Below are positions 4,422-40,372 of a stretch of DNA of 64,000 nucleotides, piece after piece. Source of the DNA: Candidatus Polarisedimenticolia bacterium (GTDB lineage: Bacteria; Acidobacteriota; Polarisedimenticolia; Gp22-AA2; AA152); the NCBI GenBank assembly GCA_036004685.1, contig DASYRE010000026.1, positions 45,772 through 109,771 on the forward strand. The letters run 5' to 3'. The notes under the pieces were generated by a model. That model saw only the letters and a program-made list of their open reading frames with translations. It had not been told where the DNA came from and ran no database searches. How positions within the stretch are numbered: position 1 is the first letter of the stretch; the number at the start of each line of letters is the position of its first letter. The translations under genes and the position numbers were made by a program.

Positions 4422-4437
4422 AAGGAGGAGTCGTTCG

Positions 4438-4794: not shown

Positions 4795-4850
4795 CAGGCG
4801 GCGAGCGCTTTGCCTATCATCCGACGGCGCCGTTCCCGCCTTGGAGCCGC

Positions 4851-5171: not shown

Positions 5172-5553
5172 GGTTCCGAAGAAGCTCTTCTACAAGATCG
5201 GCGAGGTCTGCTCGCTGACCGATACGCAGCCCTACGTCCTGAGGTTTTGGGAGTCGGAGTTTCCGCAGCTTGCGCCGAAGAAGACCCGGACGGGCCAGCG
5301 CGTCTACCGTCCCCGGGACATCGAGATGGTCCTGGAGATCAAGAAGCTGCTCTATGACGAGGGGTTCACGATTGCCGGCGCGCGCAAAAAGCTGGGGATG
5401 GGCGACGGCGCGGCTCCTCTCCCCGAGCCCACCGAGGAGCCGGCCCCGGACACCATGGCGCTGCTGGAGCTGCAGGAGGACTTCCGCTCCTCCCTCGGCG
5501 AGATCCTCTCGATCATGGACGACACCGATCGGCGCCTGAAGAAGAAGAGCTGA
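5161..5553 (+). CDS. MerR family transcriptional regulator
   Basis: N-terminal MerR HTH ([24 protein letters not shown]). The conserved position downstream of ihfA is a common arrangement. Confidence 0.7.
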
Positions 5554-5575
5554 TCGTCCCGCGCGCCCGGCCGCC

Positions 5576-5598
5576 TTGACACTCTTCCGACCGCGCCG

Positions 5599-5605
<7 letters not shown>
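5576..5605 (+). promoter_or_regulatory. sigma70-type promoter for tRNA-Pro(GGG): TTGACA-N18-TAGAAT
   Basis: -35 TTGACA at 5576-5581, 18-nt spacer, -10 TAGAAT at 5600-5605, about 18 nt upstream of the tRNA 5' end. Confidence 0.55.
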
Positions 5606-6045
<440 letters not shown>

Positions 6046-6196
6046 CCCTCAGCTCCTTCCACCCCTCCTGGGTTTTCCAGATCGGCACGGGCCGCGCCTG
6101 GGGCCGGATAGCGCCAGATTCGTGGATCGCCTCCGGTCTGATGTATGCATCCCAAGGACTCCGAAAGTCGCGGGATCGAAAAGGGGTTCCCGCCCG

Positions 6197-6397
6197 TCAC
6201 CGGGAGCGGTAACGCCCCCCGACGCTCCACCCTCCCTTCTCCTCATCCTCTTCTTCGCCGCCTCCGTCGTCCTCGTCGTCGTCTTCCTCTTCGTCCTCCT
6301 CGTCGTCCTCTTCCTCTTCCTCTTCGTCGTCGATATCTTCTTCCTCGTCAACATCGTCTACATTCGCCAGGCGCAGCTGCTGTGCCAACGTGTTCAT
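6197..6397 (-). CDS. hypothetical small highly acidic protein (Asp/Glu-rich)
   Basis: 66 aa from ATG 6397 (RBS-like GGAGGG upstream): MNTLAQQLRLANVDDVDEEEDIDDEEEEEEDD... GAG/GAC codons match host bias. Low complexity, so could be spurious. Confidence 0.35.
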   Translation of the reverse strand: MNTLAQQLRLANVDDVDEEEDIDDEEEEEEDDEEDEEEDDDEDDGGGEEEDEEKGGWSVGGRYRSR

Positions 6398-6509
6398 CTC
6401 TGGGTCACCCTCCGGTGATTGCCTGCGAACTCCTCGCAAGCGACGCGATTATACCTCGGCGTTCCGGGGCCGGCGACGATGGGGCCTATGCTATACTCCC
6501 GCTTCAACG

Positions 6510-7280
6510 ATGGCTCCTCATCCGCCCTTCATCCTGGTCACCAACGACGATGGCATCGGCGCCGAAGGGCTGCAGGCGCTGTCCCGCGAGCTCGCCTCGG
6601 TCGGCCGGGTCGCCGTCATCGCGCCGGATCGGGAGCAGAGCGCCTCCAGCCACGCCTTGACGCTGCACCGCCCCCTGCGCGTGAAGCACCACGCGCCGGA
6701 CGTCTACAGCGTCGACGGGACGCCCACCGACTGCGTCAACCTGGGAATCCTGAACCTCCTCCCCGAGCGCCCCGCTCTGGTGGTCTCGGGAATCAACCGG
6801 GGGATGAACCTCGGCGACGACATCACCTATTCGGGGACGGTCGCGGCGGCGTTCGAGGGGACGCTCTTGGGCATTCCTTCCTTCGCCGTGTCGCAGCAGA
6901 CTTCCAGGGAGAAACCGGTCGATTTCGCCGCCGCGGCCCGCTTCGCCGCGACGCTGGCGCGCCGCGTGCTGGATCACCCCATTCCGCCGGGGACGCTCTT
7001 GAATGTGAACGTGCCGGCGGCCCCGCCTCGGGGGGTGCGCCCGACGCGACAGGGGAAGCGGACCTACCATCAGGGGGTGGTGGAGCGGACCGATCCGGCG
7101 GGACGCCGCTACTACTGGCTGGGCGGCATCCCGCCCCAATGGGACGACGACCCCCACAGCGATTTCGCCGCCATCAAGGACGGTTACATCTCGCTTACCG
7201 CCCTGCATCTCGATCTCACGCACTACCCGCTGCTGAAAGAGCTGGAAGGTTGGCACCTGGAGGCGTTCTCGGAGAGGTGA
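6510..7280 (+). CDS. surE: 5'/3'-nucleotidase SurE
   Basis: FILVTNDDGIGAEGL...GINRGMNLG hallmark SurE motifs. ATG 6510 chosen within track ORF 6390..7280. Confidence 0.85.
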   Translation: MAPHPPFILVTNDDGIGAEGLQALSRELASVGRVAVIAPDREQSASSHALTLHRPLRVKHHAPDVYSVDGTPTDCVNLGILNLLPERPALVVSGINRGMNLGDDITYSGTVAAAFEGTLLGIPSFAVSQQTSREKPVDFAAAARFAATLARRVLDHPIPPGTLLNVNVPAAPPRGVRPTRQGKRTYHQGVVERTDPAGRRYYWLGGIPPQWDDDPHSDFAAIKDGYISLTALHLDLTHYPLLKELEGWHLEAFSER

Positions 7281-7284
7281 CTTC

Positions 7285-7941
7285 GTGGACTTCAGGCTCA
7301 GGCGCCAGAAGATGGTGGCCCGCCTCGAAAAGGCGGGGATCGTAGACCCGCGGATCCTCCAGGCCTTCCTCGACGTGCCGCGGCACCTCTTCGTCGAGGA
7401 GGCGCTCCAGGAGAAGGCCTACGGCACCCACGCCCTGCCGATCGGGCACCAGCAGACGATCTCGCAGCCCGAGATCGCCGCCCGGATGACGGAGATGCTG
7501 CAGATCCGCTCGGAAGACCGGGTCCTCGAAGTGGGGACCGGCTCGGGCTACCAGGCGGCGATCCTGGCGCGCCTGGCTTCGGAGGTCCTCACGGTGGAGC
7601 GCATCCCGGCGCTCGCCCGGCGCGCCGAGGCTCTGCTGATGGCGTTGAAGCTGGGAAACGTGCGCGTCAAAGTGTGCGACGGCTCGCTTGGCCTCGGCGA
7701 GGGGCAGTCCTTCGACGTTATCCTGGTGGCCGCGGCCGCCCCGGAGATCCCGCGCCCGCTGCTGGAGCACCTGGCCCCGGGAGGGCGCATGGTGATTCCG
7801 GTGGGCTCCGGGTCAAAGCAGAATCTCTTCCGGGTCGTGCGCCAGGGGGACGAGTTCCTGGCCGAGGACCGCGGCCCCTGCACCTTCGTCAAGCTGGTCG
7901 GCCGCTCGCGCTGGGCGAACCTTCCCGATCACCCTTCCTGA
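7285..7941 (+). CDS. pcm: protein-L-isoaspartate O-methyltransferase
   Basis: SAM-MTase motif VLEVGTGSGYQAAILA. Classic surE-pcm pairing. GTG 7285 follows RBS GGAGAGG; an alternative ATG at 7312 aligns with the E. coli N-terminus. Confidence 0.85.
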   Translation: MDFRLRRQKMVARLEKAGIVDPRILQAFLDVPRHLFVEEALQEKAYGTHALPIGHQQTISQPEIAARMTEMLQIRSEDRVLEVGTGSGYQAAILARLASEVLTVERIPALARRAEALLMALKLGNVRVKVCDGSLGLGEGQSFDVILVAAAAPEIPRPLLEHLAPGGRMVIPVGSGSKQNLFRVVRQGDEFLAEDRGPCTFVKLVGRSRWANLPDHPS

Positions 7942-7948
7942 GGTCGGC

Positions 7949-9076
7949 ATGGAGAGCGATTTTCTGGCGCAGGAGATGCAGCGTTTCGACCCCGAGGCGT
8001 CGCTGGAAGCCGCGCGCACGCCTCCCGCCTCCTGGTACACCGATCCCCGCTTCCTGGAGCTCGAGCGGACCACGGTGTTCCGACGCTCCTGGCAGGCGGT
8101 CGGACGCATCGACCAGCTGCCGCGCGCCGGCAGCTACTTCACCGGCGAGCTGCTCGGAGAGCCGTTCGTGGTGGTCCGCGGCTCCGACGGGGCGCTTCGG
8201 GCGTTCCTCAACGTCTGCCGCCACCATGCCGCCCAGGTGTGCCCGGGGGAGGAAGGCTGCCTGACGGAGCTGACCTGCCCATATCACGGCTGGACGTACG
8301 GGCTGGACGGGCGGCTCCTGCGCGCCCCGAAGCTGGGACGGAGCGAAGTCTTCGATCGGGACGGCTTCGGGCTCGTGCCGATCGCCGTGGAGAGCTGGGG
8401 GCCGCTGGTCTTCGTGCACCTCGGGCAGAAGCCCGCCTCCCTGCGCCAGGAGCTCGCCGAGCTGGAGCGGCGCCTCGAAGCCTCGGCCTTTCGGGAGCTG
8501 CGCTTCGCGCAGCGCAAGTCGTACGACTTGCAGTGCAACTGGAAGGTCTACGTCGACAACTACCTCGACGGCGGCTATCACGTGGCGCACCTCCACCGGG
8601 GCCTCGCCGGGCAGCTCGACCTCAAGAGCTACCGGACGGAGATCTTCCCGCGCCTGTCGATCCAGTCCTGCGCGGCGCCGGCGGAGGCGGCGGCGGGGCC
8701 CGAGGGCGACTTCCCCGAGAGGATCGGCCAAGGGGCGCTGTACGCCTGGATCCATCCCAACTTCATGATCAACCGCTACGGCTCCATCATGGACACCAAC
8801 TACGTCCTGCCGCTCTCCCACGACCGCTGTCGCGTCGTCTTCGATTTCTTCTTCGACGAGACGGAAGGCGCGGAAGCGCAGGACTTCATCGCCAAGAGCG
8901 TCGCCGCCAGCCACGTCGTCCAGGAAGAGGACGTGGGGATCAGCGAGTCGGTCCAGCGAGGGCTCGGCTCGTCGGCTTACGATCGCGGCATCTACGCCCC
9001 CGCGTTCGAGGCCCCGATGCTCCACTTCCACCGGCTTCTCGCGCGCGACCTCCGCGGCGCCGGCCGCCCCTCCTGA
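7949..9076 (+). CDS. Rieske [2Fe-2S] non-heme iron oxygenase alpha subunit (ring-hydroxylating/demethylase-like)
   Basis: Rieske motif CRHH...17 aa...CPYHGW, and a mononuclear Fe motif region DGGYHVAHLH. 375 aa. No reductase partner in the window. Confidence 0.75.
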   Translation: MESDFLAQEMQRFDPEASLEAARTPPASWYTDPRFLELERTTVFRRSWQAVGRIDQLPRAGSYFTGELLGEPFVVVRGSDGALRAFLNVCRHHAAQVCPGEEGCLTELTCPYHGWTYGLDGRLLRAPKLGRSEVFDRDGFGLVPIAVESWGPLVFVHLGQKPASLRQELAELERRLEASAFRELRFAQRKSYDLQCNWKVYVDNYLDGGYHVAHLHRGLAGQLDLKSYRTEIFPRLSIQSCAAPAEAAAGPEGDFPERIGQGALYAWIHPNFMINRYGSIMDTNYVLPLSHDRCRVVFDFFFDETEGAEAQDFIAKSVAASHVVQEEDVGISESVQRGLGSSAYDRGIYAPAFEAPMLHFHRLLARDLRGAGRPS

Positions 9077-9083
9077 GACGGCG

Positions 9084-10901
9084 ATGACGCCTCGCGGGCG
9101 CCGGGCGCGGCTGATCGCGGCCCTCGGCTGCCTGGTTGCCGTCGCCGCGCTGCCGCCGGCCGCCGTCGCGGCCGAACTCTCCGTCGATCTCGCCTCGGCC
9201 CGCCGATTGTTCCAGAAGAACCTCGACGCGATCCGGCACCGGGATCGGAGCGCCTATCTCGCCTGCTATCTCAACGGCAAGACGCTGGCCCGGACGGGGC
9301 CCGACGGGATCCAGCTCGGGTTCGCAGAGCTGGCGCGCGAGGCGGGGAAAGGATGGCCCGATCGTTTCGAGGGACTCGATCTGCAGCTCGTGCCGATCCG
9401 CCCGGGCCTGGTCTACGGCACCTACCGCTACCGGGTCCGTTACGGCGCGCGCGAGGAGTCGGGCCTCTCGGAGCGCCTGTTCGTGGAAACGGAGAAGGGA
9501 TGGAAGATCGCCGTGACGACGGCGTTCCCCGCGGCCGCCGGCACGCCGCCCCCGCCGCGGGCCCTCGTCGGCGCGACCTTGGTCGATGGCACGGGCGGGA
9601 GCCCGGTGGCCGATGCGACCGTGATCCTGCGCGGCGGCAAGATCGATTGCGCCGGGAGCAGGGCCCGATGCCTCGTTCCGGACGGCCTCGAGACGCTCGA
9701 CGTTTCGGGCAAGTGGATCACGCCCGGCCTGATCGACGCTCACGTCCACTTCGCCCAGACCGGCTGGGTCGACGGGCGCCCCGACGCGATCGACGTCCGC
9801 AAGGATTATCCGTACGAGGAGGTCGAGGCCGGGCTAGAGGCCCATCCGGAGCGCTTCTTCCGGGCGTTCCTGTGCTCGGGCGTCACCGCGGTCTTCGACG
9901 TCGGCGGCTATCCCTGGAGCTGGGATCTGCGCGGCCGGGCCGCGGCCGATCCACTGGCGCCACGCGTCGCGGCTGCCGGGCCGCTGCTCTCCACCTGGGA
10001 CTTCTGGCTGAACCTCCCGGGAGAGCGGCAGTTCCTCTACCTGGGCGGGGAGGAAGACGCGCGGCAAGACGTCCGCTACCTCAAAGCGCGCGACACCGAC
10101 GCCGTCAAGGTCTGGTTCATTCCGGTCGAGAGCCGGAAGTTCGAGGAGATGGAGAAGGTGGTGCAGGCCGCCGGGGAGGAGGCGCGCCGGCTGCGGGTTC
10201 CTCTCATCGTCCACGCCACGGGGCTGCGCGAGGCGAAAGCGGCGCTGCGCGCCGGGGCCAGCCTTCTCGTCCACAGCGTCGGCGACCTCCCGGTCGACGA
10301 GGAATTCCTGGCGCTGGCCCGCAAGAATAAGGTGGTCTACTGCCCGACGCTGGTGGTGGTCGACGGTTACCGGCGGCTGCAGGAGGCGGCCGCGGCGCAC
10401 CGGCGGCCCGACGTCGACGATCCGAACGGCTGCGTCGATCCCGGGATCGTGGCGCGTCTCGCCAAGACGGCCGATCTGAAAGCCCCGGCACCCGATCCGG
10501 CCGTCGCGGAACGCCGGCGGGCCCGGTTCCAGACCTTCGCCGAGCAGGCGCCGCGCAACCTCCTCAAGGTGCACGACGCGGGGATCGCCATCGCCATGGG
10601 GACCGACGCCGGCAACCCCCTGACGCTCCACGGCCCTTCGGTATACGCCGAGATGGAAGCGATGCAGGCGGCCGGCCTGGCGCCGATGGACGTGATCGTC
10701 GCCTCCACCCGAGGCGGGGCGCGGGCGATGGGACGGTCGGCGGAGATCGGAACGCTCGAGAAGGGAAAGAGCGCCGACCTGCTCGTCCTGGACGCCGACC
10801 CGACGCAGGATGTTATGGCCTTTCGGCGGCTGCGCTACGTGGTCCGGGGCGGCGTCGTCCGGACTCCCGAGGAATTGAGGCCCGCCAAGCCCGCCCGCTG
10901 A
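9084..10901 (+). CDS. secreted amidohydrolase family protein with N-terminal SnoaL/NTF2-like domain
   Basis: Signal peptide (LIAALGCLVAVAALPPAAVAA). Metal-dependent hydrolase motif GLIDAHVHF and a C-terminal amidohydrolase region. Confidence 0.7.
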   Translation: MTPRGRRARLIAALGCLVAVAALPPAAVAAELSVDLASARRLFQKNLDAIRHRDRSAYLACYLNGKTLARTGPDGIQLGFAELAREAGKGWPDRFEGLDLQLVPIRPGLVYGTYRYRVRYGAREESGLSERLFVETEKGWKIAVTTAFPAAAGTPPPPRALVGATLVDGTGGSPVADATVILRGGKIDCAGSRARCLVPDGLETLDVSGKWITPGLIDAHVHFAQTGWVDGRPDAIDVRKDYPYEEVEAGLEAHPERFFRAFLCSGVTAVFDVGGYPWSWDLRGRAAADPLAPRVAAAGPLLSTWDFWLNLPGERQFLYLGGEEDARQDVRYLKARDTDAVKVWFIPVESRKFEEMEKVVQAAGEEARRLRVPLIVHATGLREAKAALRAGASLLVHSVGDLPVDEEFLALARKNKVVYCPTLVVVDGYRRLQEAAAAHRRPDVDDPNGCVDPGIVARLAKTADLKAPAPDPAVAERRRARFQTFAEQAPRNLLKVHDAGIAIAMGTDAGNPLTLHGPSVYAEMEAMQAAGLAPMDVIVASTRGGARAMGRSAEIGTLEKGKSADLLVLDADPTQDVMAFRRLRYVVRGGVVRTPEELRPAKPAR

Positions 10902-11002
10902 GCTCTCCCCCGAGCTCGTCTCCGATTCCAAGAGAGCGGCGTCGAGTTAGACCGCTTCTCCGAACCTTCGTCGGCCCAATGTCGGGACACAAATCAATTT
11001 GA

Positions 11003-11218
11003 CATCGAGATCGGCGAGACGCCCGGATGGCAAGGCGCCCGAACGCATACCCAGGACCCTACGCCGGCGAGGCGCAGGCAGCAGTGTCGCGTCTCCCAAA
11101 GGACGTTGGCATCGAGGCCGTCGAGGCGCCCGGATGGCAAGACGCGCCGAAGCGCCGCGTACTCAGGGCGGTCCGCAAGCGAGGCGCAATGCGGCGAGCC
11201 GGGATGGATCGACGGCCT
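11003..11218. repeat. imperfect ~45-nt direct repeats (2.5 copies, ~107-bp period) in a convergent intergenic region
   Basis: CATCGAGATCGGCGAGACGCCCGGATGGCAAGGCGCCCGAACGC at 11003-11046 recurs as CATCGAGGCCGTCGAGGCGCCCGGATGGCAAGACGCGCCGAAGCGC at 11110-11155. A partial third copy GCGAGCCGGGATGGATCGACGG lies at ~11192. Confidence 0.45.
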
Positions 11219-12765
11219 CAGCGGTGGCTTGCGAGGATGGCCGCGGCGGCGAGCGAGCCCGGACCGCCGGTGATCCCGCCGCCGGGATGGGTGCCGCTGC
11301 CGCACAGGATGAGGCCCGGCAACGGGGTCAGGTGACGCGAGCAGGAGGCGGCGGGCCGCAGGGAGAACATCTGGTCGAGGCCATGCTCGCCGTGGTGGAT
11401 GTGTCCCTCCGTCAGGCCGTAGCGGGACTCGAGATCGGCCGGGGAGAGGACTTCGCCACTGAGGATGCGCTCCGGAAGCGTCGGGGCGTAGACCGCCAGG
11501 GTTTGCACGACGTGGTCGGCGAGCGCTTTCTTCCGATCTTCGGTCCATCCCCCTCGAACGTGGTACGGCACGAAGTGCGCCAAGATCGAGACGACGTGGT
11601 TCCCGGAGGGGGCGAGCGACGGCTCGGAGAGCGACGGGACGCGGACGTCGAGGATGGGCCGCGCCGGATATTCCCCGTACTTCACCGGATCGAAGGCGCG
11701 CTCCAGATCGTCCAGCTCCTCCCCGGTCCGGATCGCCTCGAACACTCCGCCCGGCCGGCCGGCGAAATCGAGAGGACCGCTCAGGGCGAGGTTCACCTTG
11801 GCGGTCGTTCCGCGGCAGCGCCAGTGGCGGATCGCTTCCTCGATCTCCGCCGGAAGGTCGCGCGGCGCGATCATCTCGAAGAAGGTCCTCTTGGGATCGC
11901 ACGAGGAGAGGACGCCCAGCGCGTCGATCCGCTCTCCGCCCTCCAGCTCGACGCCGCGGACTTTTCCCCCTTCCACCAGAATCCGGCGGACCGGGGAGGA
12001 GGTCCGGATCTCCGCCCCGTGGGCGCGGCACGACTCCTCCAGAGCGCGGGTCAGGACCGCCGCCCCGCCGCGGATCTCGCGTCCCGTGAGCGCTTCGTGC
12101 AGGAGCAGATTGGCGGCGCTGCCGGCCGACCAGGGACCCAGCCAGGTGCCGGCGACCGACTCTCCGGCGAGGCCCGCCCTCAGGAGCTTGGTCTCGAACC
12201 ACTCGCCCACGTAGTCGCCCACGCACATCGGCAGGACGCGCAGGACGTCGAGCATCTCGTCTTCCGAGAGGCGGCGCAGCGCCAGCCCGCGGCGCGCCAG
12301 GTCCCAGAGATCTCCCAGCCCCTGCGCTCCGAGCTTGGGAGCGGGCTCGTCCTGCAGGCGGGCCAGGAAGTTCCGGATGCGCCCGAGGAAACCGCGCCAG
12401 GCCCGGTACCGGTCGGCGTCCCGCCGCGAGAACGCCGCGATCTCCGGCTCGGCCCGCGCCGGATCGCGGTAGAGGAGCAGGCCCCGCCCGGCGGCCTGCG
12501 GAAAGTAGACCGGCACCTCGTCGTCGCGCCAGACGAGGCCGTGGCGCTCGAGCTGCAGCAGCTCGGCCACCTGGGGACGGAAGGAGGCGGTGTCGTGGAG
12601 CAGGCCGGGGGTGCGGAAGCCGGGCCGGAATTCCTCCAGGGCGCCGAGGCCGCCGAGGACGTCGCGGCGCTCGACGACCAGGAGCTTGCGCCCGTTCTTG
12701 GCGAGCAGCGCCGCCGCCACCAGTCCGTTGTGGCCCCCGCCGATGACGATGAAGTCGTAGCCCAT
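11218..12765 (-). CDS. FAD-dependent oxidoreductase, phytoene desaturase (CrtI) family
   Basis: N-terminal Rossmann motif MGYDFIVIGGGHNGLVAAALLA with ERRDVLGG, CrtI-like length (515 aa). ATG 12765 with RBS GAAGGAAAG. The upstream part of track ORF 11218..14115 is the neighbouring gene read out of frame. Confidence 0.75.
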   Translation of the reverse strand: MGYDFIVIGGGHNGLVAAALLAKNGRKLLVVERRDVLGGLGALEEFRPGFRTPGLLHDTASFRPQVAELLQLERHGLVWRDDEVPVYFPQAAGRGLLLYRDPARAEPEIAAFSRRDADRYRAWRGFLGRIRNFLARLQDEPAPKLGAQGLGDLWDLARRGLALRRLSEDEMLDVLRVLPMCVGDYVGEWFETKLLRAGLAGESVAGTWLGPWSAGSAANLLLHEALTGREIRGGAAVLTRALEESCRAHGAEIRTSSPVRRILVEGGKVRGVELEGGERIDALGVLSSCDPKRTFFEMIAPRDLPAEIEEAIRHWRCRGTTAKVNLALSGPLDFAGRPGGVFEAIRTGEELDDLERAFDPVKYGEYPARPILDVRVPSLSEPSLAPSGNHVVSILAHFVPYHVRGGWTEDRKKALADHVVQTLAVYAPTLPERILSGEVLSPADLESRYGLTEGHIHHGEHGLDQMFSLRPAASCSRHLTPLPGLILCGSGTHPGGGITGGPGSLAAAAILASHR

Positions 12766-12779
12766 GGCTTGGCTTTCCT

Positions 12780-14369
12780 TCAGACGGACCGCGAGCTGAG
12801 GATGTCGCGCGCCGCGTTGGCGCCCGGCGCCCCCATGATCCCGCCGCCCGGATGCACCGCGGAGCCGCACATCCAGAGCTTCGGCACCGGCGTCCGGTAA
12901 CGCGCCCATTTCGGTGCGGGGCGCAGGAAGAAGAGCTGCTCGAGACTCAGCTCTCCCTGGAAGATGTTCCCTTCGCTCAGCCCGGTCTGCTGCTCGATGT
13001 CCCAGGGAGTCAGGACCTGCCGGTGAAGGATCGCCTCCTTCAGGCCCGGGCAGTATTCGGCGAGCGTGTCGATGACCGTGTCGCCCCAGGCCTCGCGCTT
13101 GCCGGGCCAGGCGGCGGCCCCCTCCTTGAGGTGATACGGGGCGTACTGGACGAAGATCGACATGACGTGCTTGCCGGGAGGGGCGACCGAGGGATCGACG
13201 AGCGACGGGATCACTACGTTGAGGTAGGGGCGCTTCGAGTACTCGCCATATTTCGCCTCGTCGTAGGCGCGCTCCAGGTACTCGATGCTGGGCGAGATGG
13301 CGATGTCGCCCCGCAGGTGCGGCCCGATCCCGGGGCGCGACACGAACTCGGGAAGGCGATCGAGCGCCAGATTCACTTTCCCGGAGCTGCCGCGCAGCTT
13401 GTAGCGGCGAATCGACTCCACGAACTGCGGGTCGAGCCCCTCGGCGCCCACCAGCTTCAGGAAGGTGCGGCGCGGATCCATGCTGGAGATGACGATCTTC
13501 GAGCGGATCTCCTCGCCCCCCTCGAGGACGACGCCGGCGGCAGAGCCGCCGTTCATGAGGACCCGCTCCACCGGCGCCTCCGTCCGGATCTCGGCGCCGA
13601 GGTGCCGCGCGGCGTCGCCGATGGCGGCGCTCAGCGCGCCGGTGCCCCCCTTGCAGAACCCCCACGATCGGAAGGCGCCGTCGATCTCCCCCATGTAATG
13701 ATGCAGCAGGACGTAGGCCGTCCCCGGGGAGCGGACCCCCAGGAACGTGCCGATGATGCCGCTCACCGACATGGTCGCCTTCAGGACGTCGGATTCGAAC
13801 CATTGATCCAGGAAGTCGACGGCGCTCATCGTGAACATCTTGATCTTGCGGACCCGCTCCTCCTCGCTCAGGGCGCCGAAGCGCCTTCCGAGCTTCAGCA
13901 GCTCCCACAGCTCGCGCGGGTTCTTCGAGGTCGGATCGGGCGGCGTCATCGCCAGGATCGGCTTCACGAAGCGCCCCATCTGCATCATCGCCTGCCCGTA
14001 GGAGGGATAGATCTCGGCGTCCCGCCGGCTGAAGCGCTCGATCTCGCGGCGCGTCTGCTCGGGATCGGACCAGCGGCACAGGGAGTTCCCGTCGGGGAGG
14101 GGAGTGAAGGCGCACTCCAGCGGGATGATCTGCAATCCGAAGCGCGGCAGATCGAGGTCGCGGATGATCTCGGGGCGCAGCAGGCTCACGACGTAAGAGA
14201 AGACCGAGAAGCGGAATCCCGGGTGGATCTCCTCGCTCACCGCCGCGCCGCCGAGGACGTGGCGCCGCTCGACGACCAGGACCTTCCTCCCGGCGCGCGC
14301 CAGATAGGCGGCGCAGACGAGCCCGTTGTGGCCGCCTCCCACCACGATCGCGTCGTAGACCTTCGCCAT
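12780..14369 (-). CDS. FAD-dependent oxidoreductase, phytoene desaturase (CrtI) family (paralog)
   Basis: MAKVYDAIVVGGGHNGLVCAAYLA dinucleotide-binding motif. Collinear similarity to the downstream paralog throughout. ATG 14369 shares an A with the TGA stop of the GcvT-like gene (TGATG). Confidence 0.75.
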   Translation of the reverse strand: MAKVYDAIVVGGGHNGLVCAAYLARAGRKVLVVERRHVLGGAAVSEEIHPGFRFSVFSYVVSLLRPEIIRDLDLPRFGLQIIPLECAFTPLPDGNSLCRWSDPEQTRREIERFSRRDAEIYPSYGQAMMQMGRFVKPILAMTPPDPTSKNPRELWELLKLGRRFGALSEEERVRKIKMFTMSAVDFLDQWFESDVLKATMSVSGIIGTFLGVRSPGTAYVLLHHYMGEIDGAFRSWGFCKGGTGALSAAIGDAARHLGAEIRTEAPVERVLMNGGSAAGVVLEGGEEIRSKIVISSMDPRRTFLKLVGAEGLDPQFVESIRRYKLRGSSGKVNLALDRLPEFVSRPGIGPHLRGDIAISPSIEYLERAYDEAKYGEYSKRPYLNVVIPSLVDPSVAPPGKHVMSIFVQYAPYHLKEGAAAWPGKREAWGDTVIDTLAEYCPGLKEAILHRQVLTPWDIEQQTGLSEGNIFQGELSLEQLFFLRPAPKWARYRTPVPKLWMCGSAVHPGGGIMGAPGANAARDILSSRSV

Positions 14370-15559
14370 CAGGCCCGCTTCCTTTCGGGGTCGAAGAACG
14401 GGCGCTTCACGACCGTCGCGGTCACGGTGCGCCGCTCGTATTCGGCGGTGTGCTCGATCTGGAAGCGCGTGCCGGGCTCGGCGTAGCGCGCCTCGACCGT
14501 GGCGAGCGCCAGGTTCTTCTTGAGCATCGGCGACCAGGTGCCGCTCGTGGCGCGCCCGATCTGGCGCCGGCCGTCGTAGACCGGGACAGCGGTCCTCCAG
14601 GCGGTGGCGGGAAGGTGCGGAGGCAGCGCATGCTCCTCGTAGAGCCGCTCCAGCTCCTCCCACGAGATCTCCAGCCCGACCATCGCCCACTTCGAGCCGC
14701 GCTCCTTCTCGGCCTTCAGCGCCTGCTGTCCCACGAACGGCTCGCGGTCCAGGTCCACCGTCCATCCGAGCCCCACTTCGAAGGCCGAGGACTTCCGCGA
14801 CTCAATCGGGCAGCGCGTGGCGCTGTGATAATCGACCCCCTGGAGAATGAATCCCGCCTCGACGCGCGTCACGTCGAGGGCGTCGAGCGCCGCCGGCACC
14901 AGGCCGTAGGGAGCCCCGGCTTCGAGCAGGGAGTCCCACACCGCCACGGCGTCTTCGGCTCTCATCCAGACCTCGTATCCCAGATCGCCGGTGTAGCCGG
15001 TCCGGGAAATCTCGACCGGAATCGCGCCGATGCGGGCGGCCGCGACGCGGAAAAAGCGCAGCGCTCCGACGCCGTCGCCGCCGCAGGCCGCCTTGAGGAC
15101 GTCGCGCGAGGTGGGCCCCTGGACGGCGAGCGCCGCGGTCGTCTCGGAATGATCCTCGATCGCCACCCGGAAGCCGCGCGAGTGCTCCTGCAGCCAGCGC
15201 AGGCTCGGGCTGGCGGAGGTGACGCGGTACGTCCGGTCCGCCAGGCGCGCCGCGGTGCCGTCGTCGATCACCTTCCCCTGGCCATCGCACAGGCAGAAGT
15301 AGGAGACTTGTCCCACTTTGATCTTGCGGAGATCGCGCGACGCCACGTGGGCCAGGAAGTCGGCGGCGTCCTCGCCCGTGACGACGTACTTGAACAGCGG
15401 CGACACGTCGAGCATCCCGGCGGCGTGCCGGAAGGCGAAGTACTCGCGATCGTGGTTCGTGTCGTAGGAGCAGACGGCGCAATAGCCGGCCCAGTCCTTC
15501 CAGCGGTGACTCACGCACAAGGGAGCAGTGCGCGGGTGGAACGGAGTCGGGACGGGCAT
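14369..15559 (-). CDS. aminomethyltransferase (glycine-cleavage T protein, GcvT) family folate-binding protein
   Basis: 396 aa, two-domain GcvT-like architecture (GYTGDLGYEVW motif). Translationally coupled to the downstream flavoprotein. Confidence 0.75.
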   Translation of the reverse strand: MPVPTPFHPRTAPLCVSHRWKDWAGYCAVCSYDTNHDREYFAFRHAAGMLDVSPLFKYVVTGEDAADFLAHVASRDLRKIKVGQVSYFCLCDGQGKVIDDGTAARLADRTYRVTSASPSLRWLQEHSRGFRVAIEDHSETTAALAVQGPTSRDVLKAACGGDGVGALRFFRVAAARIGAIPVEISRTGYTGDLGYEVWMRAEDAVAVWDSLLEAGAPYGLVPAALDALDVTRVEAGFILQGVDYHSATRCPIESRKSSAFEVGLGWTVDLDREPFVGQQALKAEKERGSKWAMVGLEISWEELERLYEEHALPPHLPATAWRTAVPVYDGRRQIGRATSGTWSPMLKKNLALATVEARYAEPGTRFQIEHTAEYERRTVTATVVKRPFFDPERKRA

Positions 15560-15629
15560 GACGAGACAGCTCTCCGAAGCGCCGTGACGCGATGATGGCC
15601 TGAATTCGATGGGGCTCAGAGGCGCGTCA

Positions 15630-17661
15630 TTATACTGCAGGCGCGCGCGGGCCGGGGCCGCCGTCCAGCTCGACCTGCACCCGGGCGTCGTTGAAGCAGG
15701 CTCCGCCTCCCAGATCGGTCAGGGTGTCGGGGGCCAGGGCGTTGGCGGTCGCGCCGTTGAGGGTGTGGCGGCTCCAGAGCCCCTTGGGAAGAAAGACGAC
15801 CCCCTCGCGAAGGCCGGCGTTGATGCGGGCGTGGCAGCGAACTTCTCCCAGGGCGTTGAACACCCGCACCCTGCCGCCGTCGGAAATCCCGCGGAACCGG
15901 GCGTCGGCCGGGCTGATCTCGAGCGGCACGGGGTGCCGGTGCAGCTGCCCGAGGGTCGAGCTGATCGTCCGCGACGTGGCGGGGGAGATCAGGGCGAGCG
16001 GGTAATCCCGGGTGGCCGGATCCTCCCGGTAGGCGTAAAGCCCGCCGGGCGCCTCGCGGTCCAGCTCCGCCGGGAAGAGATGCGCCTTGCGGTCCGCGGT
16101 GAGCGGGAAGGAATCCTTGAACTGGATCGGCTCCGGCCCCGCCTCGGGCTGCGCCACGCCCTCCCGATCCAGCTCGCGGCGGAAGCGATCTCCCTGAGGA
16201 TGCGCCGCGAGGATGGCGCGGCTGATCGCCTCGTCCGTCTCCGGATCCCCGGGGCGGCTCACGCCCGTCAGGCGGCAGAGCTCGGCGAACACCTCGTGGT
16301 TCGAGCGCGACTCTCCCACCGGCGAGATCACCGCTCCGGCTTCCTGGAGGACCATCGCCCCATAACCGCGGCTCAGCTCCCGGCGCTCCAGGAACGTGGT
16401 GGCCGGCAGGATCACATCGGCGTAGCGCGCCGTGTCGGTCATCACCTGATCGAACACGACGGTGAAGAGATCTTCGCGGCGCAGCCCGGCGCGGACTTTC
16501 TCCTGGCAGGGGAGGGTGGCGAGAGGGTTCGCGTTGTAGACGAACAGGAGATCGACACTCGGGTCGGCGCCCAGCAGGACCTCGCCGACCCGGTTCATAT
16601 TGATCGTCCGGGTGGCCGGCGGCGTGGCAGCGGCCGCCGCAAGGGAATCGAGCTTCCAGATCCCGGAGTTGCTCAGGGTGTAGCCGCCGCCCCGCACAGC
16701 GAATTTTCCCGCCACCGCGGGCAGAGCCAGGATGGCGGCGATCGCCGAGCCGCCGTTGCGGCTGCGCTCCGGGCCCCAGCCGCAACGAATCACCGCGGGG
16801 CTCGACTCGGCGTAGAGGCGCGCCACCGCCTCGAGGTCCTCCGGTCCGATCCCCGCCACCCCGGCCGCCTTGGCGATCGTCCAGGGCGCGGCGCGCCGGC
16901 GCAGCTCCTCGACGCCGGTGGCATGCGCCGCGAGAAAAGCCTGATCGGCGCGATCGTTCTCGAACAGCCAGCGGATCAGGGCGAGGGCGACGGCGAGATC
17001 GGTCCCAGGCCGCAGCGCGAGATGCCGGTCGGCCCCCGCGGCGAGGGGAATCCTGCGGGGATCGACGACGATCAGCTTGGCGCCCCGCCGGCGCGCCTCG
17101 TGGACGAACGGGACGAGATGAATTCCCGACGCCGAGGGGTTCGCCCCCCAAATCACGATCAGCCGCGCGTGGACGTAGTCGTGCAGCGCCACGCCTGCCA
17201 TCCGGCCGTAGAGCCCCTCTGCCGCGGCGCGCGACGGGGCGGCGCAGACGGTGCGCGCCAGGTGCGACGCCCCCAGTCGGAAGAAGAGCCGCGCGTCGGT
17301 GGTGTCCTGCGACAGGAGCCCGTTCGAGCCGCCGTAGGAGAGGGGGAGAATCGACTCGCCGCATTTCTTCCGGGCCTCGCTCATCCGGCCGGCGATCCGC
17401 GCCAGCGCCTCGTCCCAGGAAACCCTCCGGAACCGCGCCTCGCCTTTGGGACCTTCCCGAAAGGCCGGGTGGAGGATCCGCTCCGGCCCATAAAGATGAT
17501 CGGCGAAGCCGCGCACCTTGCCGCAGATGAACGACCGGGTCAGAGGATGGGTCGCTCCGGCATCGATCTCGACCACGCGCCCGCCCTCGACCTTGACCTC
17601 CAGCGCGCAGGCATCGGGGCAATCGAGGGGGCAGATGCTCTTCATCGAGGGGTTTCCCATC
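15630..17661 (-). CDS. molybdopterin (bis-MGD) oxidoreductase family catalytic subunit, cytoplasmic type
   Basis: N-terminal 4Fe-4S Cys cluster MKSICPLDCPDAC, MGD-binding domains, C-terminal MopB domain. The 5' part of track ORF up to 17882 is tRNA-Pro antisense. Start ATG 17661 (alternative 17646). Confidence 0.75.
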
Positions 17662-17785
17662 CCGTTTCCGGGTTCGTCGCCGTTCACCGCGGGAAAAAGC
17701 GAACCGTGAGAGCGAAAGCGTAGCGGTTCCGGCGCGCCCCCGTCAAGACCTCCCGGGCCCCGGGGACGGCGCCGCGCCGCCGTTC

Positions 17786-17815
17786 TTGACGGCGTTCGAC
17801 CGATGGTGCTAAGGT
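17786..17815 (+). promoter_or_regulatory. sigma70-type promoter for tRNA-Pro(CGG): TTGACG-N17/18-(C)TAAGGT
   Basis: -35 TTGACG at 17786-17791. -10 CTAAGG/TAAGGT at 17809-17815. About 25 nt upstream of the tRNA. Confidence 0.45.
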
Positions 17816-17836
17816 TTCCCTTCTTTGAGGATTTCC

Positions 17837-17916
<80 letters not shown>

Positions 17917-17934
17917 TTGTTTTCCTTCCCGCCG

Positions 17935-18204
17935 ATGGCCGTTAAACGCTTCCTGATCCAGGGAATCGTCCAGGGTGTGGGCTTCCGTTATTTTGCCCTG
18001 AGGTCGGCGCGAGGGCTGAGTCTCGCCGGGTACGTGCGGAACCTTCCCGACGGTTCCGTGGAGGCCGTGGCGCGCGGCGAAGCCAAGGGGCTCGCGGCCC
18101 TGGAGGCGGCGTTGCGCCGCGGGCCTCCGGGATCGCGCGTCGACGCGATCGACGTCCAGGACGACGATCGGAACGTTCCCGGCGATGACTTCGTGATTCG
18201 GTGA
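17935..18204 (+). CDS. acyP: acylphosphatase
   Basis: 89 aa. VQGVGFRYF and [12 protein letters not shown] motifs. ATG 17935 chosen within track ORF 17890..18204. Confidence 0.75.
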
Positions 18205-20637: not shown

Positions 20638-21573
20638 CTAAAAGAACATTTCCCAGCCGGCGCGAACCTCGTAATTGAAGTTGGTTTCCCTCTCGTCGCC
20701 GCTGTCGAGGAGCGGCACGAAGACGCCGACCCGGTATTGATTGCGGCCCTTGGTGATGATCGGAGTCACCTGCAGGCCCGCCGTCCGATGGGCGTTGCCG
20801 GCCGGTACGCCGCCTTCCAGACGATCGTCGCCGACCGCCTCGGCGTGCACTCCCGCCGGCAGGTTGACGCCCAGGTCTTCCGCGACATTGGGGCGTACGA
20901 CCCAGCGACCGTACGCCGCATCGAATTCGATAGTGTCGCCCCGGCGGAAGCCCCTTCCAAATTCGTGCCGGTAGAAGGCGCTCGTCCAGGCGGAATCGAC
21001 GAGCCGCTCGCGGTCGACCGCGTAGCCGATCTCGACGCCGTGCCGTCCGCTGCCCGGCTGCTCGGAGGGCAGAAGGCGTTCGCCTCCGGGACCGCCGCGG
21101 TCGTCATCGCCGGTCGGAACCTTCCACCCGACGACCAGCGCCTGGCCCGACTGAAAGCTCGTCTCCTGACGCAGGCGGAAGCGGACCTTGGCCGAAAGAA
21201 GCGCATCTCCGATGCCCGCCACGCGGGTCTTCTGACTCGTTCCCGCGACGTTCTCCTCGAAGTCGGTCTGCACGACAGGCAGCTGGACGCGCACGTTCAC
21301 GAAGCGGTTGATGCCGTACTGCAGGCCGTACTCCTGCCCGAACTCCCGGGAACCTTCGCCGCCTGGCTCGGAGGCGCCACCATGGCGCATCAATCCAATC
21401 CGGATTTCGGGATGAAACACACCCGGGCCGAAGATGGTCGGCGTCTCGCCCCAGAGCGGCTCGTGCGCGACCGCCGCCCCCAGCGATCCGACAAGGCTCG
21501 CCAGGGCCGCCGTGAGACGGAGGCAAACCCGGACCGCCTTGGCACCGGCGCGCTCGCGTGGCGGCCCCCTCAC
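20638..21573 (-). CDS. outer-membrane beta-barrel protein (MetA-pathway/transporter-like OMP family)
   Basis: Signal peptide (..CLRLTAALASLVGSLGAAVA-HEP). Alternating amphipathic beta-strand pattern. C-terminal aromatic terminus ...RAGWEMFF typical of OMPs. ATG 21573 overlaps the tlpA-like stop (ATGA). Confidence 0.6.
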   Translation of the reverse strand: MRGPPRERAGAKAVRVCLRLTAALASLVGSLGAAVAHEPLWGETPTIFGPGVFHPEIRIGLMRHGGASEPGGEGSREFGQEYGLQYGINRFVNVRVQLPVVQTDFEENVAGTSQKTRVAGIGDALLSAKVRFRLRQETSFQSGQALVVGWKVPTGDDDRGGPGGERLLPSEQPGSGRHGVEIGYAVDRERLVDSAWTSAFYRHEFGRGFRRGDTIEFDAAYGRWVVRPNVAEDLGVNLPAGVHAEAVGDDRLEGGVPAGNAHRTAGLQVTPIITKGRNQYRVGVFVPLLDSGDERETNFNYEVRAGWEMFF

Positions 21574-22148: not shown

Positions 22149-22903
22149 GGATTCTCTCCCATGACGCGCAGCAAGCCCGATCCCCGACGGCCGTGGGGTT
22201 CGTCCAGTGAGTGTGGTTTCGAGTCTAGGAGAGAGGAGGCGCGCGGGAGGCACGCGCTGGCGGTGAAGGATCCGGCTGTGGGTCGGCCGCCAGCGCCGGC
22301 GGGCGGCCCTCGCAGGTCAGGCTCACTTCGATTCGGGGCGAACTCGGCAAAGTTGCGGATTCATGCGAGTCGGAACGAGGCACAAGCCACTCGCTTGCGG
22401 CCGACCTTTCGTTCCGGACAATCGGCTTGCAGCAATCCGGGATGGATGAGCCGAGCTCCGCTTGTGGCGCGCCCTGAGAAGGCAATCCGACGGAGCAGCA
22501 CGGAGCGTCTCGGACGCAGCAGAACGGCATGCTCGGCCAGCCGATCGTTAGCACCACGATCGCAACGGCCGCGGCTCTTCCCACACGCCTGTTCAACCGC
22601 CTACGCGACCCGACTGTGGACGACATGCCTGAAGATTAGCATGACGATCATGATGGGGACAACCATGGGACTTCCTCATCTCGCACGCCCCAAGGGCCAA
22701 GGCAAGACAATCTGCTTATTCCTGGCGCCGGTGTACTCCTCCACGGTTCTCATGAATGGTGCGCTCCAGCAGATCGAGGAGCGCGGGCGGATGGCGGCGC
22801 GGTTTGATGCTCCGGATCGATTCTGACAGAATACGCGCTCCCGGCGGCCGGCTCCTCCGGGATCGATCGTCATCGTGGACCGGGATCGGCGACGGCGGAG
22901 GTC

Positions 22904-39504: not shown

Positions 39505-39505
39505 G

Positions 39506-40363: not shown

Positions 40364-40372
40364 GAGGGAGCC

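Follow-up and report, generated by a model that had tools for sequence, protein, structure and literature searches.

What does the run of minus-strand genes beside tRNA-Pro(CGG) do, in the 64-kb stretch of DNA analysed here (the window)? The preliminary description took four of these genes, which encode a molybdenum enzyme, a GcvT-like protein and two CrtI-family flavoproteins (FAD1 and FAD2), as one block belonging to an undescribed oxidative pathway, with a Rieske oxygenase and an amidohydrolase as neighbours (Table 1). We favour, with a probability of about 0.58, a smaller unit: the GcvT-like protein, FAD1 and FAD2, acting with the Rieske oxygenase in the breakdown of N-methylated amines or amino acids, a catabolic system so far uncharacterised. 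The core chemistry would best be read as FAD-dependent oxidative N-demethylation with capture of the C1 unit by tetrahydrofolate (THF).

Table 1. Features of the locus, with positions in the window.
Feature	Position	Strand	Length (aa)	Remarks
Rieske non-haem-iron oxygenase, alpha subunit	7949..9076	plus	375	CntA/GbcA/Stc2 (quaternary-amine) type
Amidohydrolase, exported	9084..10901	plus	605	immediately 3' of the Rieske gene
FAD2	11218..12765	minus	515	divergent FAD1 paralog
FAD1	12780..14369	minus	529	PYROXD2-like flavoprotein, CrtI-family fold
GcvT-like protein	14369..15559	minus	396	aminomethyltransferase family, folate-binding
TATAAT hexamer, perfect	15629..15634	minus		overlaps the Mo stop codon; candidate internal promoter
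Mo-bisPGD oxidoreductase	15630..17660	minus	676	
tRNA-Pro(CGG)	17840..17916	plus		

The gene structure is as first described, the sole shift being that the ATG of the Mo gene lies at 17660 and not at 17661; the NCBI model of a 100% identical protein has 671 aa and thus begins at 17645, which may be the annotated start. The Mo and GcvT-like genes are 70 nt apart, the GcvT-like and FAD1 genes overlap in a TGATG whose A at 14369 is common to both, and the 14 nt between FAD1 and FAD2 contain AAGGAAAG, a ribosome-binding-like site ahead of FAD2. No listed ORF lies wholly between the Mo gene and tRNA-Pro on the minus strand, as had been claimed, and the original family assignments are correct at the superfamily level by Pfam and NCBIfam domain matches.

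One genome per species was scanned, giving at least 597 confirmed FAD1 matches; neighbourhood statistics come from the best 80 of these loci, which span at least eight phyla, with 78 informative for the GcvT-like gene. FAD1 homologs of 67-85% identity occur in at least five phyla. A second FAD paralog directly follows FAD1 in 78 of the best 80 loci. Of the 78 informative loci, 71 (91%) have a GcvT-like gene no more than 8 kb from FAD1: in 12 it is the next gene on the same strand, in 45 the next gene but divergent, and in 14 it is placed elsewhere in that interval. The other 7 have none at that distance. The triad is also present in a 9-Mb genome and in members of Elusimicrobia and Acidobacteria, and start/stop overlaps are common. 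Homologous Rieske genes are found in 33 of the 80 loci and in both alphaproteobacterial loci, often directly adjoining the GcvT-like gene. Further recurrent neighbours are an APC amino-acid permease (37/80), a GntG/threonine-aldolase-like PLP enzyme (13/80) and PurU, above its NCBIfam cut-off (9/80). The Mo gene is in none of the 80. Hence the proposed conservation of the block holds, far beyond chance and across phyla, for the GcvT-like gene, FAD1 and FAD2 and fails for the Mo gene; with the Rieske gene recurrent, the real unit is these three genes plus the Rieske gene, and not a four-gene operon.

The same set recurs in cultured Alphaproteobacteria, where the module resides on secondary replicons. 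In Fuscovulum ytuae the order is TetR, class-III aminotransferase, FAD, FAD, aminomethyltransferase, two Rieske genes and a polyamine-type ABC transporter, and Rhizobium sp. SL42 has a similar gene set. The cross-phylum conservation of the triad and its folate- and amine-related neighbours fit an undescribed oxidative N-demethylation system; this much of the original pathway proposal is upheld, while the part given to the Mo enzyme is not.

The GcvT-like protein (Pfam GCV_T, 1.8e-61; GCV_T_C, 8e-17) is, as had been suspected, no ordinary glycine-cleavage T protein, since it falls under both GcvT cut-offs (179 against 235.85; 232 against 300) and neither gcvH nor gcvP is found among the scanned ORFs of the window. 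In both NCBIfam (294.6 bits) and the PDB (9q5a, E 1.8e-55, full length) it matches best the formaldehyde-capturing THF domain at the C-terminus of TMAO demethylase (Tdm), and its folate-site motifs, VIDDG and SRTGYTGDLGYE, align with those of Tdm and of T-proteins. The NCBIfam score is nevertheless far under the 1100 required for Tdm, since the window protein, which is partnered by a flavoprotein pair, lacks Tdm's N-terminal catalytic domain. It also matches dimethylglycine oxidase (DMGO; 1pj5, E 7e-29) and SoxA (1vrq, E 1e-26). Heterotetrameric sarcosine oxidase (SoxABDG), DMGO and the dimethylglycine and sarcosine dehydrogenases follow the same logic as that proposed here, in which flavoprotein oxidation of an N-methyl group is joined to GcvT-like transfer of the C1 unit into 5,10-methylene-THF; the PurU neighbour in some module loci is a further likeness to sarcosine oxidase systems. 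Tdm also shares this logic. In contrast to SoxABDG, DMGO and Tdm, the flavoprotein in the window is of the CrtI/PYROXD2 family, and the folate-binding unit is a protein of its own. We propose that the GcvT-like protein is the THF-dependent C1-capture subunit. The GcvT family includes direct methyltransferases such as DmdA and LigM, so capture of formaldehyde or an iminium is one of several possible roles.

FAD1 and FAD2 (42% identical to each other) both match Pfam Amino_oxidase/NAD_binding_8, and their top NCBIfam families are CrtO and crtI_fam, with scores far under the cut-offs of 1000 and 238, respectively. FAD1 has a CrtI/CrtD-like fold, and FAD2 retains the GGGHNGL...E and HPGGG motifs. 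FAD1 is proposed to be the catalytic amine dehydrogenase or oxidase subunit, and gene adjacency suggests FAD2 as the second subunit of a heteromeric flavoprotein. Solved carotenoid desaturases and ketolases of the CrtI, CrtD and CrtO types are only 17-22% identical to these proteins, and the preliminary description was right that crt neighbours are lacking: there are none among the scanned window ORFs or among the recurrent families of the 80 loci, where the conserved partners are instead folate and amine-catabolic genes. The flavin-dependent lysine demethylases LSD1/KDM1 are more distant still (11-12% identity); LSD1, whose substrates are histone tails, lacks a GcvT-like partner.

A closer relative is suggested by UniRef, which automatically names a 71%-identical FAD1 homolog PYROXD2. 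Against a provisional human PYROXD2 sequence, FAD1 has 43% identity (419 bits) and FAD2 34% (263 bits); by the same provisional sequence, FAD1 types score 411-419 bits, single-copy relatives 381-394 and FAD2 types 153-297, making FAD1 the nearest bacterial type among those tested. FAD1 thus probably belongs with human PYROXD2, as a relative rather than an established ortholog, a placement that draws on the automatic name and the provisional sequence. Unlike FAD1/FAD2, the human enzyme is a single protein that is not known to have a paired paralog.

Human PYROXD2 is a mitochondrial flavoprotein and an orphan enzyme, whose function papers of 2022 and 2026 call little known; no report of an enzymatic activity for it or for FAD1 was found in the searched literature. 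Few reported determinants of plasma N6-methyl-lysines are as strong as its locus: a missense SNP accounts for ~50% of the variance of N6-methyllysine and 48% of that of N6,N6-dimethyllysine, and is also associated with N-methylpipecolate and trimethyllysine (PMC8109053). Furthermore, a urinary trimethylamine signal is higher where PYROXD2 expression is lower (PMC3169529). This control over N-methylated lysine levels fits N-demethylation. The historical epsilon-alkyllysinase activity has been equated with LSD1 in a review; a link to the PYROXD2 family would be our own suggestion.

The Rieske protein (Pfam Rieske and Ring_hydroxyl_A) is closest to CntA (carnitine), GbcA (glycine betaine) and Stc2 (stachydrine). 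Carnitine monooxygenase CntA is its top PDB match (6y9c, E 1e-44, full length), followed by stachydrine demethylase Stc2 (3vca/4qup), so the nearest proteins of solved structure are quaternary-amine enzymes; GbcA is its top NCBIfam match. It differs from all three in scoring below every equivalog cut-off, GbcA's included, and in that no CntB/GbcB-type reductase gene adjoins it in the window. Among the scanned ORFs, no transporter or regulator adjoins the module there. We propose that the Rieske oxygenase takes the first step, acting on the substrate in its quaternary form as a demethylase or a cleaving enzyme; in the established scheme of proline-betaine catabolism, a Rieske demethylase is followed by a flavin demethylase. 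Of the two neighbours singled out originally, then, the Rieske gene is a recurrent partner and the amidohydrolase (Pfam Amidohydro_1/3) is not: it has a signal-peptide-like N-terminus, MTPRGRRARLIAALGCLVAVAALPPAAVAAE, homologs beside the module are confined to the window's clade, and it probably stands outside the cytoplasmic module.

In the system that we favour, a quaternary (trimethylammonium) form, which the flavoprotein would be unable to oxidise, would be attacked by the Rieske monooxygenase. A FAD1-FAD2 heteromer would then dehydrogenate the N-methyl C-N bonds still left in the tertiary and secondary amine to an iminium, and the translationally coupled GcvT-like protein would use THF to convert the C1 unit into 5,10-methylene-THF with no free formaldehyde. 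The demethylated primary amine would pass into ordinary catabolism. If a substrate had to be guessed, we would choose omega-N-methylated amino acids or amines, for example N-epsilon-methyl-lysines or betaine demethylation intermediates.

The substrate alone would change if the triad were an alternative dimethylglycine/sarcosine dehydrogenase in glycine-betaine catabolism, with a GbcA-type Rieske enzyme first and glycine as the end product. GbcA is indeed the top NCBIfam match for both Rieske types, sarcosine oxidases and dimethylglycine dehydrogenases typically carry GcvT-like domains, and sarcosine oxidase operons contain PurU, which here adjoins the FAD pair. However, all GbcA scores are 157-220 against a cut-off of 670, CntA, the top solved relative, is no betaine enzyme, and the alphaproteobacterial class-III aminotransferase and polyamine-type binding protein fit an omega-amine product and not glycine. 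The human associations likewise concern methyl-lysines and N-methylpipecolate, not dimethylglycine or sarcosine (PMC8109053). We therefore regard this substrate as unlikely.

Quite unlikely, too, is a single operon and pathway for all four minus-strand genes, with the Mo enzyme as a further redox step or an electron outlet for the flavoproteins. That protein (Pfam Molybdop_Fe4S4, Molybdopterin and Molydop_binding; no NCBIfam family above cut-off) is a cytoplasmic Mo/W-bisPGD oxidoreductase that bears an N-terminal 4Fe-4S motif and no twin-arginine leader; in alignment, the metal-ligand position is taken by a Cys (RTVCAAPS), and the His that follows in formate dehydrogenases is absent. Its gene shares the triad's strand, the 70-nt gap holds no terminator-like site, and the whole arrangement, including surE-pcm-Rieske-amidohydrolase, is retained in L005/L006 and L097 (71-73% Mo identity) and probably in L096 (81%). 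Yet these loci all belong to the window's own clade, the only one in which the Mo gene adjoins the module; besides its absence from the 80 loci of other lineages, Mo orthologs of 65-70% identity stand alone in unrelated contexts in all five genomes checked (L087-L091). In L091 the gene lies near MerR and surE with the module absent, which suggests that it is part of the ancestral backbone. In addition, 70 nt ahead of the GcvT-like start codon, the TATAAT that overlaps the Mo stop is conserved together with a following ACGCGCC in L005 and L006 despite differing flanks. It has no -35 match and was not called by a consensus promoter scan; it is suggestive of a promoter for GcvT-like/FAD1/FAD2 that possibly separates the triad from the Mo gene. 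In this lineage the Mo-bisPGD gene most likely neighbours the triad with no functional tie to it.

Reversal of the direction, such that the flavoproteins and the GcvT-like protein methylate a substrate through methylene-THF and reduced flavin, as in ThyX, TrmFO and MnmEG, is very improbable. Folate/FAD-dependent reductive methylation is established chemistry, the N-terminal domain of MnmE has a GcvT-like fold, and the very high cross-phylum conservation of FAD1 (about 70% identity) would suit a housekeeping role. Against this, the neighbours are uptake systems, quaternary-amine-type Rieske oxygenases, TetR/LysR regulators and aminotransferases, PurU disposes of C1 units, and the alphaproteobacterial module is on secondary replicons; in humans, moreover, methylated amine signals are higher with lower PYROXD2 expression (PMC3169529). 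That FAD1 and FAD2 act on lipids or isoprenoids as desaturases, isomerases or ketolases (CrtI, CrtD or CrtO type), functionally unrelated to the GcvT-like protein, is scarcely credible given their low family scores, the lack of crt genes among the scanned window ORFs and the recurrent families of the 80 loci, and a GcvT-like association, with start/stop overlaps and a re-assorted gene order in Alphaproteobacteria, that chance does not explain.

The apparent FAD1-FAD2 and GcvT-FAD1 fusions contain frameshift-like junk segments in all those examined. Among single-copy FAD relatives, one in Sphingobium has no GcvT-like gene; like the 7 loci with none within 8 kb and the lack of a Rieske reductase, a transporter and a regulator beside the module in the window, this counts against the favoured reading. 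In its favour, a divergent one in Shinella sumterensis again adjoins a gcvT gene, in a cluster where PGAP annotates a 3-hydroxyacyl-CoA dehydrogenase NAD-binding protein and a 3-keto-5-aminohexanoate cleavage protein, which we take to be carnitine-dehydrogenase-like and BKACE-like, respectively.

Direct reading of the gene junctions placed all four minus-strand genes of the preliminary description where it had put them, the only change being the ATG of the Mo gene, at 17660 instead of 17661. Its family calls were also right at superfamily level, with Mo, GCV_T/GCV_T_C and Amino_oxidase/NAD_binding_8 domains all recovered. The finding is real and exceeds the lineage-specific 'unusual operon' that had been proposed, but the composition of that operon was mis-drawn: the triad of the GcvT-like gene and the flavoprotein genes FAD1 and FAD2 (hereafter the module) is conserved as a block, whereas the Mo gene is joined to it in the window's own clade only.

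Coordinates of the module, its neighbours and the two tRNA-Pro genes in the window.
Feature	Position	Strand	Remarks
Mo-bisPGD oxidoreductase (Mo gene)	15630..17660	-	In-frame ATG at 17660 (17645 on the 671-aa NCBI model)
GcvT-like gene	14369..15559	-	70-nt gap after the Mo gene
FAD1	12780..14369	-	TGATG junction with the GcvT-like gene, the A at 14369 being common to both
FAD2	11218..12765	-	14-nt gap after FAD1, carrying AAGGAAAG
Rieske gene	7949..9076	+	
Amidohydrolase gene	9084..10901	+	
tRNA-Pro(CGG)	17840..17916	+	Strand opposite to the four-gene set
tRNA-Pro(GGG)	5624..5700		

A scan for FAD1 relatives with one genome per species gave at least 597 confirmed matches, and among these the module is found in Acidobacteriota, Planctomycetota, Elusimicrobiota, Chlamydiota, Bacteroidota, Zixibacteria, Krumholzibacteria and Latescibacteria; the Alphaproteobacteria came in through plasmid searches. 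The 120 best database matches to FAD1 are 67-97% identical to it and come from Acidobacteria, Planctomycetes, Elusimicrobia, Eisenbacteria and Proteobacteria. Neighbourhoods were then counted in the best 80 of the 597 or more loci by tblastn and de novo ORF clustering. In 78 of the 80, a second FAD paralog directly follows FAD1. Of the 78 informative loci (two more being truncated), 71 have a GcvT-like gene no farther than 8 kb from FAD1, either adjacent on the same strand (12), divergently adjacent (45) or elsewhere within that distance (14); at the other seven (about 9%) none was found within 8 kb. The GcvT-like and flavoprotein genes, which share one base of start and stop codon in the window, overlap by 4 nt in L002 and L003. 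When the contexts of three distant homologs were read, a 9-Mb genome and Elusimicrobia both showed the order GcvT-like, FAD1, FAD2, and start/stop overlaps as well. The genetic coupling of a folate module to a flavoprotein that is typical of THF-linked N-demethylases is evidently present here. Other genes accompany the module less regularly. Within the same best 80 loci, we found an APC-type amino-acid permease nearby in 37, a homolog of the window's Rieske protein in 33 (as a rule next to the GcvT-like gene), a GntG/threonine-aldolase-like PLP enzyme immediately following the FAD pair in 13, PurU (above its curated cut-off) in 9 and FolP in 6.

The module is also carried by cultured bacteria. 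A search of plasmid and secondary-replicon proteins found FAD1 homologs of about 51% identity, each with a second paralog, in Shinella, Rhizobium sp. SL42, Ensifer adhaerens, Fuscovulum ytuae and Parasedimentitalea marina. In Fuscovulum, a TetR gene is followed by genes for a class-III aminotransferase, two FAD proteins, an aminomethyltransferase-family protein and two Rieske alpha subunits, and then by a four-gene polyamine-type ABC transporter, a cupin and an amidohydrolase. The core is the same in Rhizobium sp. SL42, where ABC transporter, aminotransferase and Rieske genes lie nearby. Identity of the alphaproteobacterial proteins to those of the window is 38% for the GcvT-like protein and 27-37% for the Rieske protein, and homology was confirmed. 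The re-assortment of the module genes into a different order in so distant a phylum argues for function over inherited synteny. The Fuscovulum locus (L093, NZ_CP124537) further contains, about 8 kb upstream of the module, a molybdopterin protein of the xanthine-dehydrogenase type together with a 2Fe-2S protein (1314..4018), the former of a family different from that of the window's Mo enzyme; the cupin downstream of the ABC transporter is of the DMSP-lyase family, and neither it nor the amidohydrolase there (22650..25101 for the two) has detectable homology to the window's amidohydrolase.

The GcvT-like protein comprises a folate-binding domain and a C-terminal barrel (PF01571, 1.8e-61; PF08669, 8e-17). 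Its best full-length match is the C-terminal tetrahydrofolate domain of TMAO demethylase, Tdm (NCBIfam, 294.6 bits; PDB 9q5a, E 1.8e-55), followed by T-proteins and then by the folate domains of DMGO, DMGDH and SoxA, and its folate-site motifs VIDDG and SRTGYTGDLGYE align with those of Tdm and the T-proteins. It misses both curated GcvT cut-offs, scoring 179.4 against 235.85 for TIGR00528 and 231.9 against 300 for PRK00389, and no GcvH or GcvP family member was found among the subset of ORFs scanned with Pfam across the 64-kb window. The view that this is no ordinary glycine-cleavage T protein is thereby upheld.

FAD1 and FAD2 are paralogs of 42% identity. Both match Amino_oxidase and NAD_binding_8, and their best named models are CrtO and crtI_fam, although neither protein reaches the cut-offs of these (CrtO ketolase, NF045689: 313 and 254.2 against 1000; crtI_fam, TIGR02734: 117.8 and 92.8 against 238.1, for FAD1 and FAD2, respectively). 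An AF2 model of FAD1 built from a 118-sequence alignment (pLDDT 89, pTM 0.91) has a CrtI-like three-dimensional fold, the closest solved fold being that of a C-C desaturase; an earlier model from 8 sequences (pLDDT 57) was set aside. The label 'CrtI family' therefore holds at the level of the predicted fold, which leaves the chemistry undecided. Carotenoid genes (crtB, crtE, crtY and the like) were found neither among the window ORFs scanned nor among the recurrent families of the best 80 loci.

Of the two plus-strand neighbours that had been noted just upstream, the Rieske oxygenase proved to be a recurrent partner of the module and the amidohydrolase did not. The Rieske protein has carnitine monooxygenase CntA as its best solved relative (E 1e-44, full length), with stachydrine demethylase Stc2 also among the best, and GbcA as its best NCBIfam model, at a score below the cut-off; all three enzymes act on quaternary ammonium compounds. 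On its recurrence beside the GcvT-like gene, we assign the Rieske oxygenase to the module. No Rieske reductase, transporter or regulator was found beside the module in the window. The amidohydrolase has a signal-peptide-like N-terminus (MTPRGRRARLIAALGCLVAVAALPPAAVAAE) and is probably exported; its N-terminal extension of about 175 residues gave no family match in the scans. Because of the signal peptide and the lack of conservation beside the module, it was dropped as a pathway member. The Rieske gene begins 8 nt (7941..7949) past the stop of pcm, which encodes protein-isoaspartate methyltransferase, and the amidohydrolase gene 8 nt past the Rieske stop (9076..9084). Given these 8-nt spacings, both genes are possibly co-transcribed with the housekeeping surE-pcm pair.

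The Mo protein has the Fe4S4, molybdopterin and dinucleotide-binding domains of its superfamily (PF04879, PF00384 and PF01568). A protein from a Candidatus Polarisedimenticolia (Acidobacteriota) MAG matches it at 100% identity. Among characterised subfamilies, which included formate dehydrogenase, Nas/Nap, DmsA, BisC, TorA, Phs and others, the 25 NCBIfam matches listed all lie far below their cut-offs, the best being Fdh-alpha with 216 (cut-off 666). In alignment, the metal-ligand position is taken by a Cys, the His that follows it in formate dehydrogenases is missing, and no Tat leader was found. The family itself is well conserved, but not with the module: none of the best 80 loci has a homolog of the Mo enzyme. 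In each of five genomes examined outside the window's clade (L087-L091), Mo orthologs of 65-70% identity stand alone in unrelated surroundings. The order Mo-GcvT-FAD1-FAD2 / amidohydrolase-Rieske-pcm-surE recurs only in loci of the window's own clade, namely the closely related Acidobacteria contigs L005/L006, L097 and, probably, L096 (cut off by the contig end). Judged by these neighbourhoods, the Mo enzyme is most likely a bystander of the module. In L091, a few kb separate the Mo gene from MerR and surE, and the module is absent from that interval, which is consistent with placement of the module beside a pre-existing Mo gene and hints at its insertion. The Mo ortholog of L096, of 81% identity, has a hypABCDEF hydrogenase-maturation set (1231..7159) immediately upstream on the other strand, for which the window shows no counterpart at that place.

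The most economical reading of the conserved set is a catabolic N-demethylation system, to which we give a probability of about 0.58. Conservation and family assignments are observed here; the chemistry, heteromer and substrate that we infer would be as follows. The quaternary stage would be handled by the Rieske oxygenase, the remaining N-methyl groups would be oxidised by a FAD1-FAD2 heteromer, and the C1 unit would be captured on tetrahydrofolate by the coupled GcvT-like protein; the variable accessories would serve C1 disposal (PurU), uptake (permeases and ABC transporters) and further catabolism (aminotransferases and aldolases). The logic is like that of the sarcosine and dimethylglycine oxidases and of Tdm, but the flavoprotein family differs: the DAO-family FAD catalytic domain of the THF-linked sarcosine oxidase, DMGO and DMGDH is missing from the module's flavoproteins. 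The module would then represent a variant of the folate-coupled flavoprotein N-demethylases for which no characterisation was found in the searchable literature. If this chemistry holds, it would be a third, evolutionarily independent flavoprotein scaffold for folate-coupled N-demethylation, and would partly fill a gap on the use of methylated nitrogen compounds by abundant soil phyla.

The flavoproteins probably also have a human relative. UniRef100_A0A7Y2E9I7, 71% identical to FAD1, bears the name PYROXD2. Against an unauthenticated human PYROXD2 sequence, FAD1 is 43% identical over its full length (419 bits) and FAD2 34% (263 bits); against the same unauthenticated sequence, FAD1-type proteins of three phyla score 411-419 bits and single-copy relatives 381-394, the FAD1 type being top among the bacterial types tested. 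A more divergent, PYROXD2-like single-copy gene (42% identical) directly precedes gcvT in Shinella sumterensis (L094, NZ_CP132306). The locus (4032..13170) runs from LysR through enoyl-CoA hydratase, acyl-CoA ligase and 3-hydroxyacyl-CoA dehydrogenase NAD-binding protein to FAD, gcvT, class II aldolase and 3-keto-5-aminohexanoate cleavage protein; we take the dehydrogenase to be carnitine-dehydrogenase-like and the cleavage protein to be BKACE-like. Here the flavoprotein family is again paired with a folate enzyme, in a second and different setting. A single-copy relative in Sphingobium has no GcvT neighbour.

PYROXD2 is a mitochondrial disease gene (PMC8777681) and among the strongest known metabolite QTLs, one missense SNP accounting for about 50% of the plasma variance of N6-methyllysine and 48% of that of N6,N6-dimethyllysine; the locus is further associated with N-methylpipecolate, trimethyllysine and acetylated methyl-lysines (PMC8109053). 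Reduced PYROXD2 expression goes with a raised urinary trimethylamine signal, and the same haplotype raises plasma dimethylamine (PMC3169529). Its function was still called little known in papers of 2022 and 2026 (PMC8777681, PMC13352909). The bacterial module is widespread and its core protein unusually conserved, yet no description of its function, or of an enzymatic activity of PYROXD2, was found in the searchable literature.

Epsilon-alkyllysinase is N6-methyl-lysine oxidase (EC 1.5.3.4). Under the former name, an oxidative demethylase of free N-epsilon-methyl-lysine is known from rat kidney since 1963-64 (PMC3936616), and we infer a tie between it and the PYROXD2/FAD1 family. It is conceivable, if on balance doubtful, that FAD1-FAD2 with the GcvT-like protein is the bacterial counterpart of the activity still to be assigned to human PYROXD2, namely a folate-coupled demethylase of omega-N-methylated free amino acids. 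Its substrates would be N-epsilon-mono- and dimethyl-lysine, N-methylpipecolate and the N-methyl-aminobutyrate or -aminovalerate compounds that are intermediates of betaines, with the first methyl group of the trimethyl form taken off by the Rieske oxygenase. More speculatively still, electrons from the flavoprotein step might feed the Rieske oxygenase directly, there being no dedicated reductase gene nearby. Were this reading right, both the epsilon-alkyllysinase of the 1960s and the strongest human methyl-lysine mQTL would have their sequence family, and amine N-demethylation would become a demonstrated reaction of a CrtI-fold flavoprotein. It is a concrete, testable hypothesis for an orphan human enzyme, and both genetics and biochemistry are feasible in cultured Shinella zoogloeoides, Ensifer adhaerens, Rhizobium sp. 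SL42, Fuscovulum ytuae and Parasedimentitalea marina.

Several apparent gene fusions in public MAGs were set aside. A GcvT+FAD1 fusion (L057, 6465..9587) and two FAD1+FAD2 fusions of about 1050 aa (P0252 and P0253) contain Arg-rich out-of-frame stretches and were read as indel or frameshift artefacts of long-read assembly at high GC; in P0093 and P0059, a complete FAD1 continues in frame into the FAD2 N-terminus, after which the sequence degrades too. Most likely, all are frameshift artefacts reading into the frame of the next gene. Since, in addition, a concatenated GcvT+FAD1 query gave no protein with both domain sets among its 120 best matches, there is no evidence for fusion in the module.

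Finally, we note some local features of the window. A perfect TATAAT (15629..15634, minus strand) overlaps the TAA stop of the Mo gene, 70 nt before the GcvT-like ATG; together with the ACGCGCC that follows, it is kept in L005 and L006, where the flanks differ. It may be a candidate internal promoter for the triad, a reading that is suggestive only, as the site lacks a -35 match and a consensus scan of 10800..18000 called no promoter. Terminator-like sites in the same interval were at chance level in the consensus scan. Two ORFs, 20638..21573 (minus strand) and 5819..6418 (plus strand), have a gene-like GC3 bias and no Pfam family at E<=1e-5. Downstream of dnaK-dnaJ, an IstB_IS21-like ATPase ORF (40364..41104, plus strand) directly follows a sigma-70-family gene (39485..40363), and no IstA-like transposase was noticed beside it. 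The two tRNA-Pro genes (GGG and CGG) flank the stretch surE-pcm-Rieske-amidohydrolase / FAD2-FAD1-GcvT-Mo. GC in the window is high, about 0.64-0.71, and between these two tRNA genes it is 0.70, slightly above most of the window (0.64-0.68).
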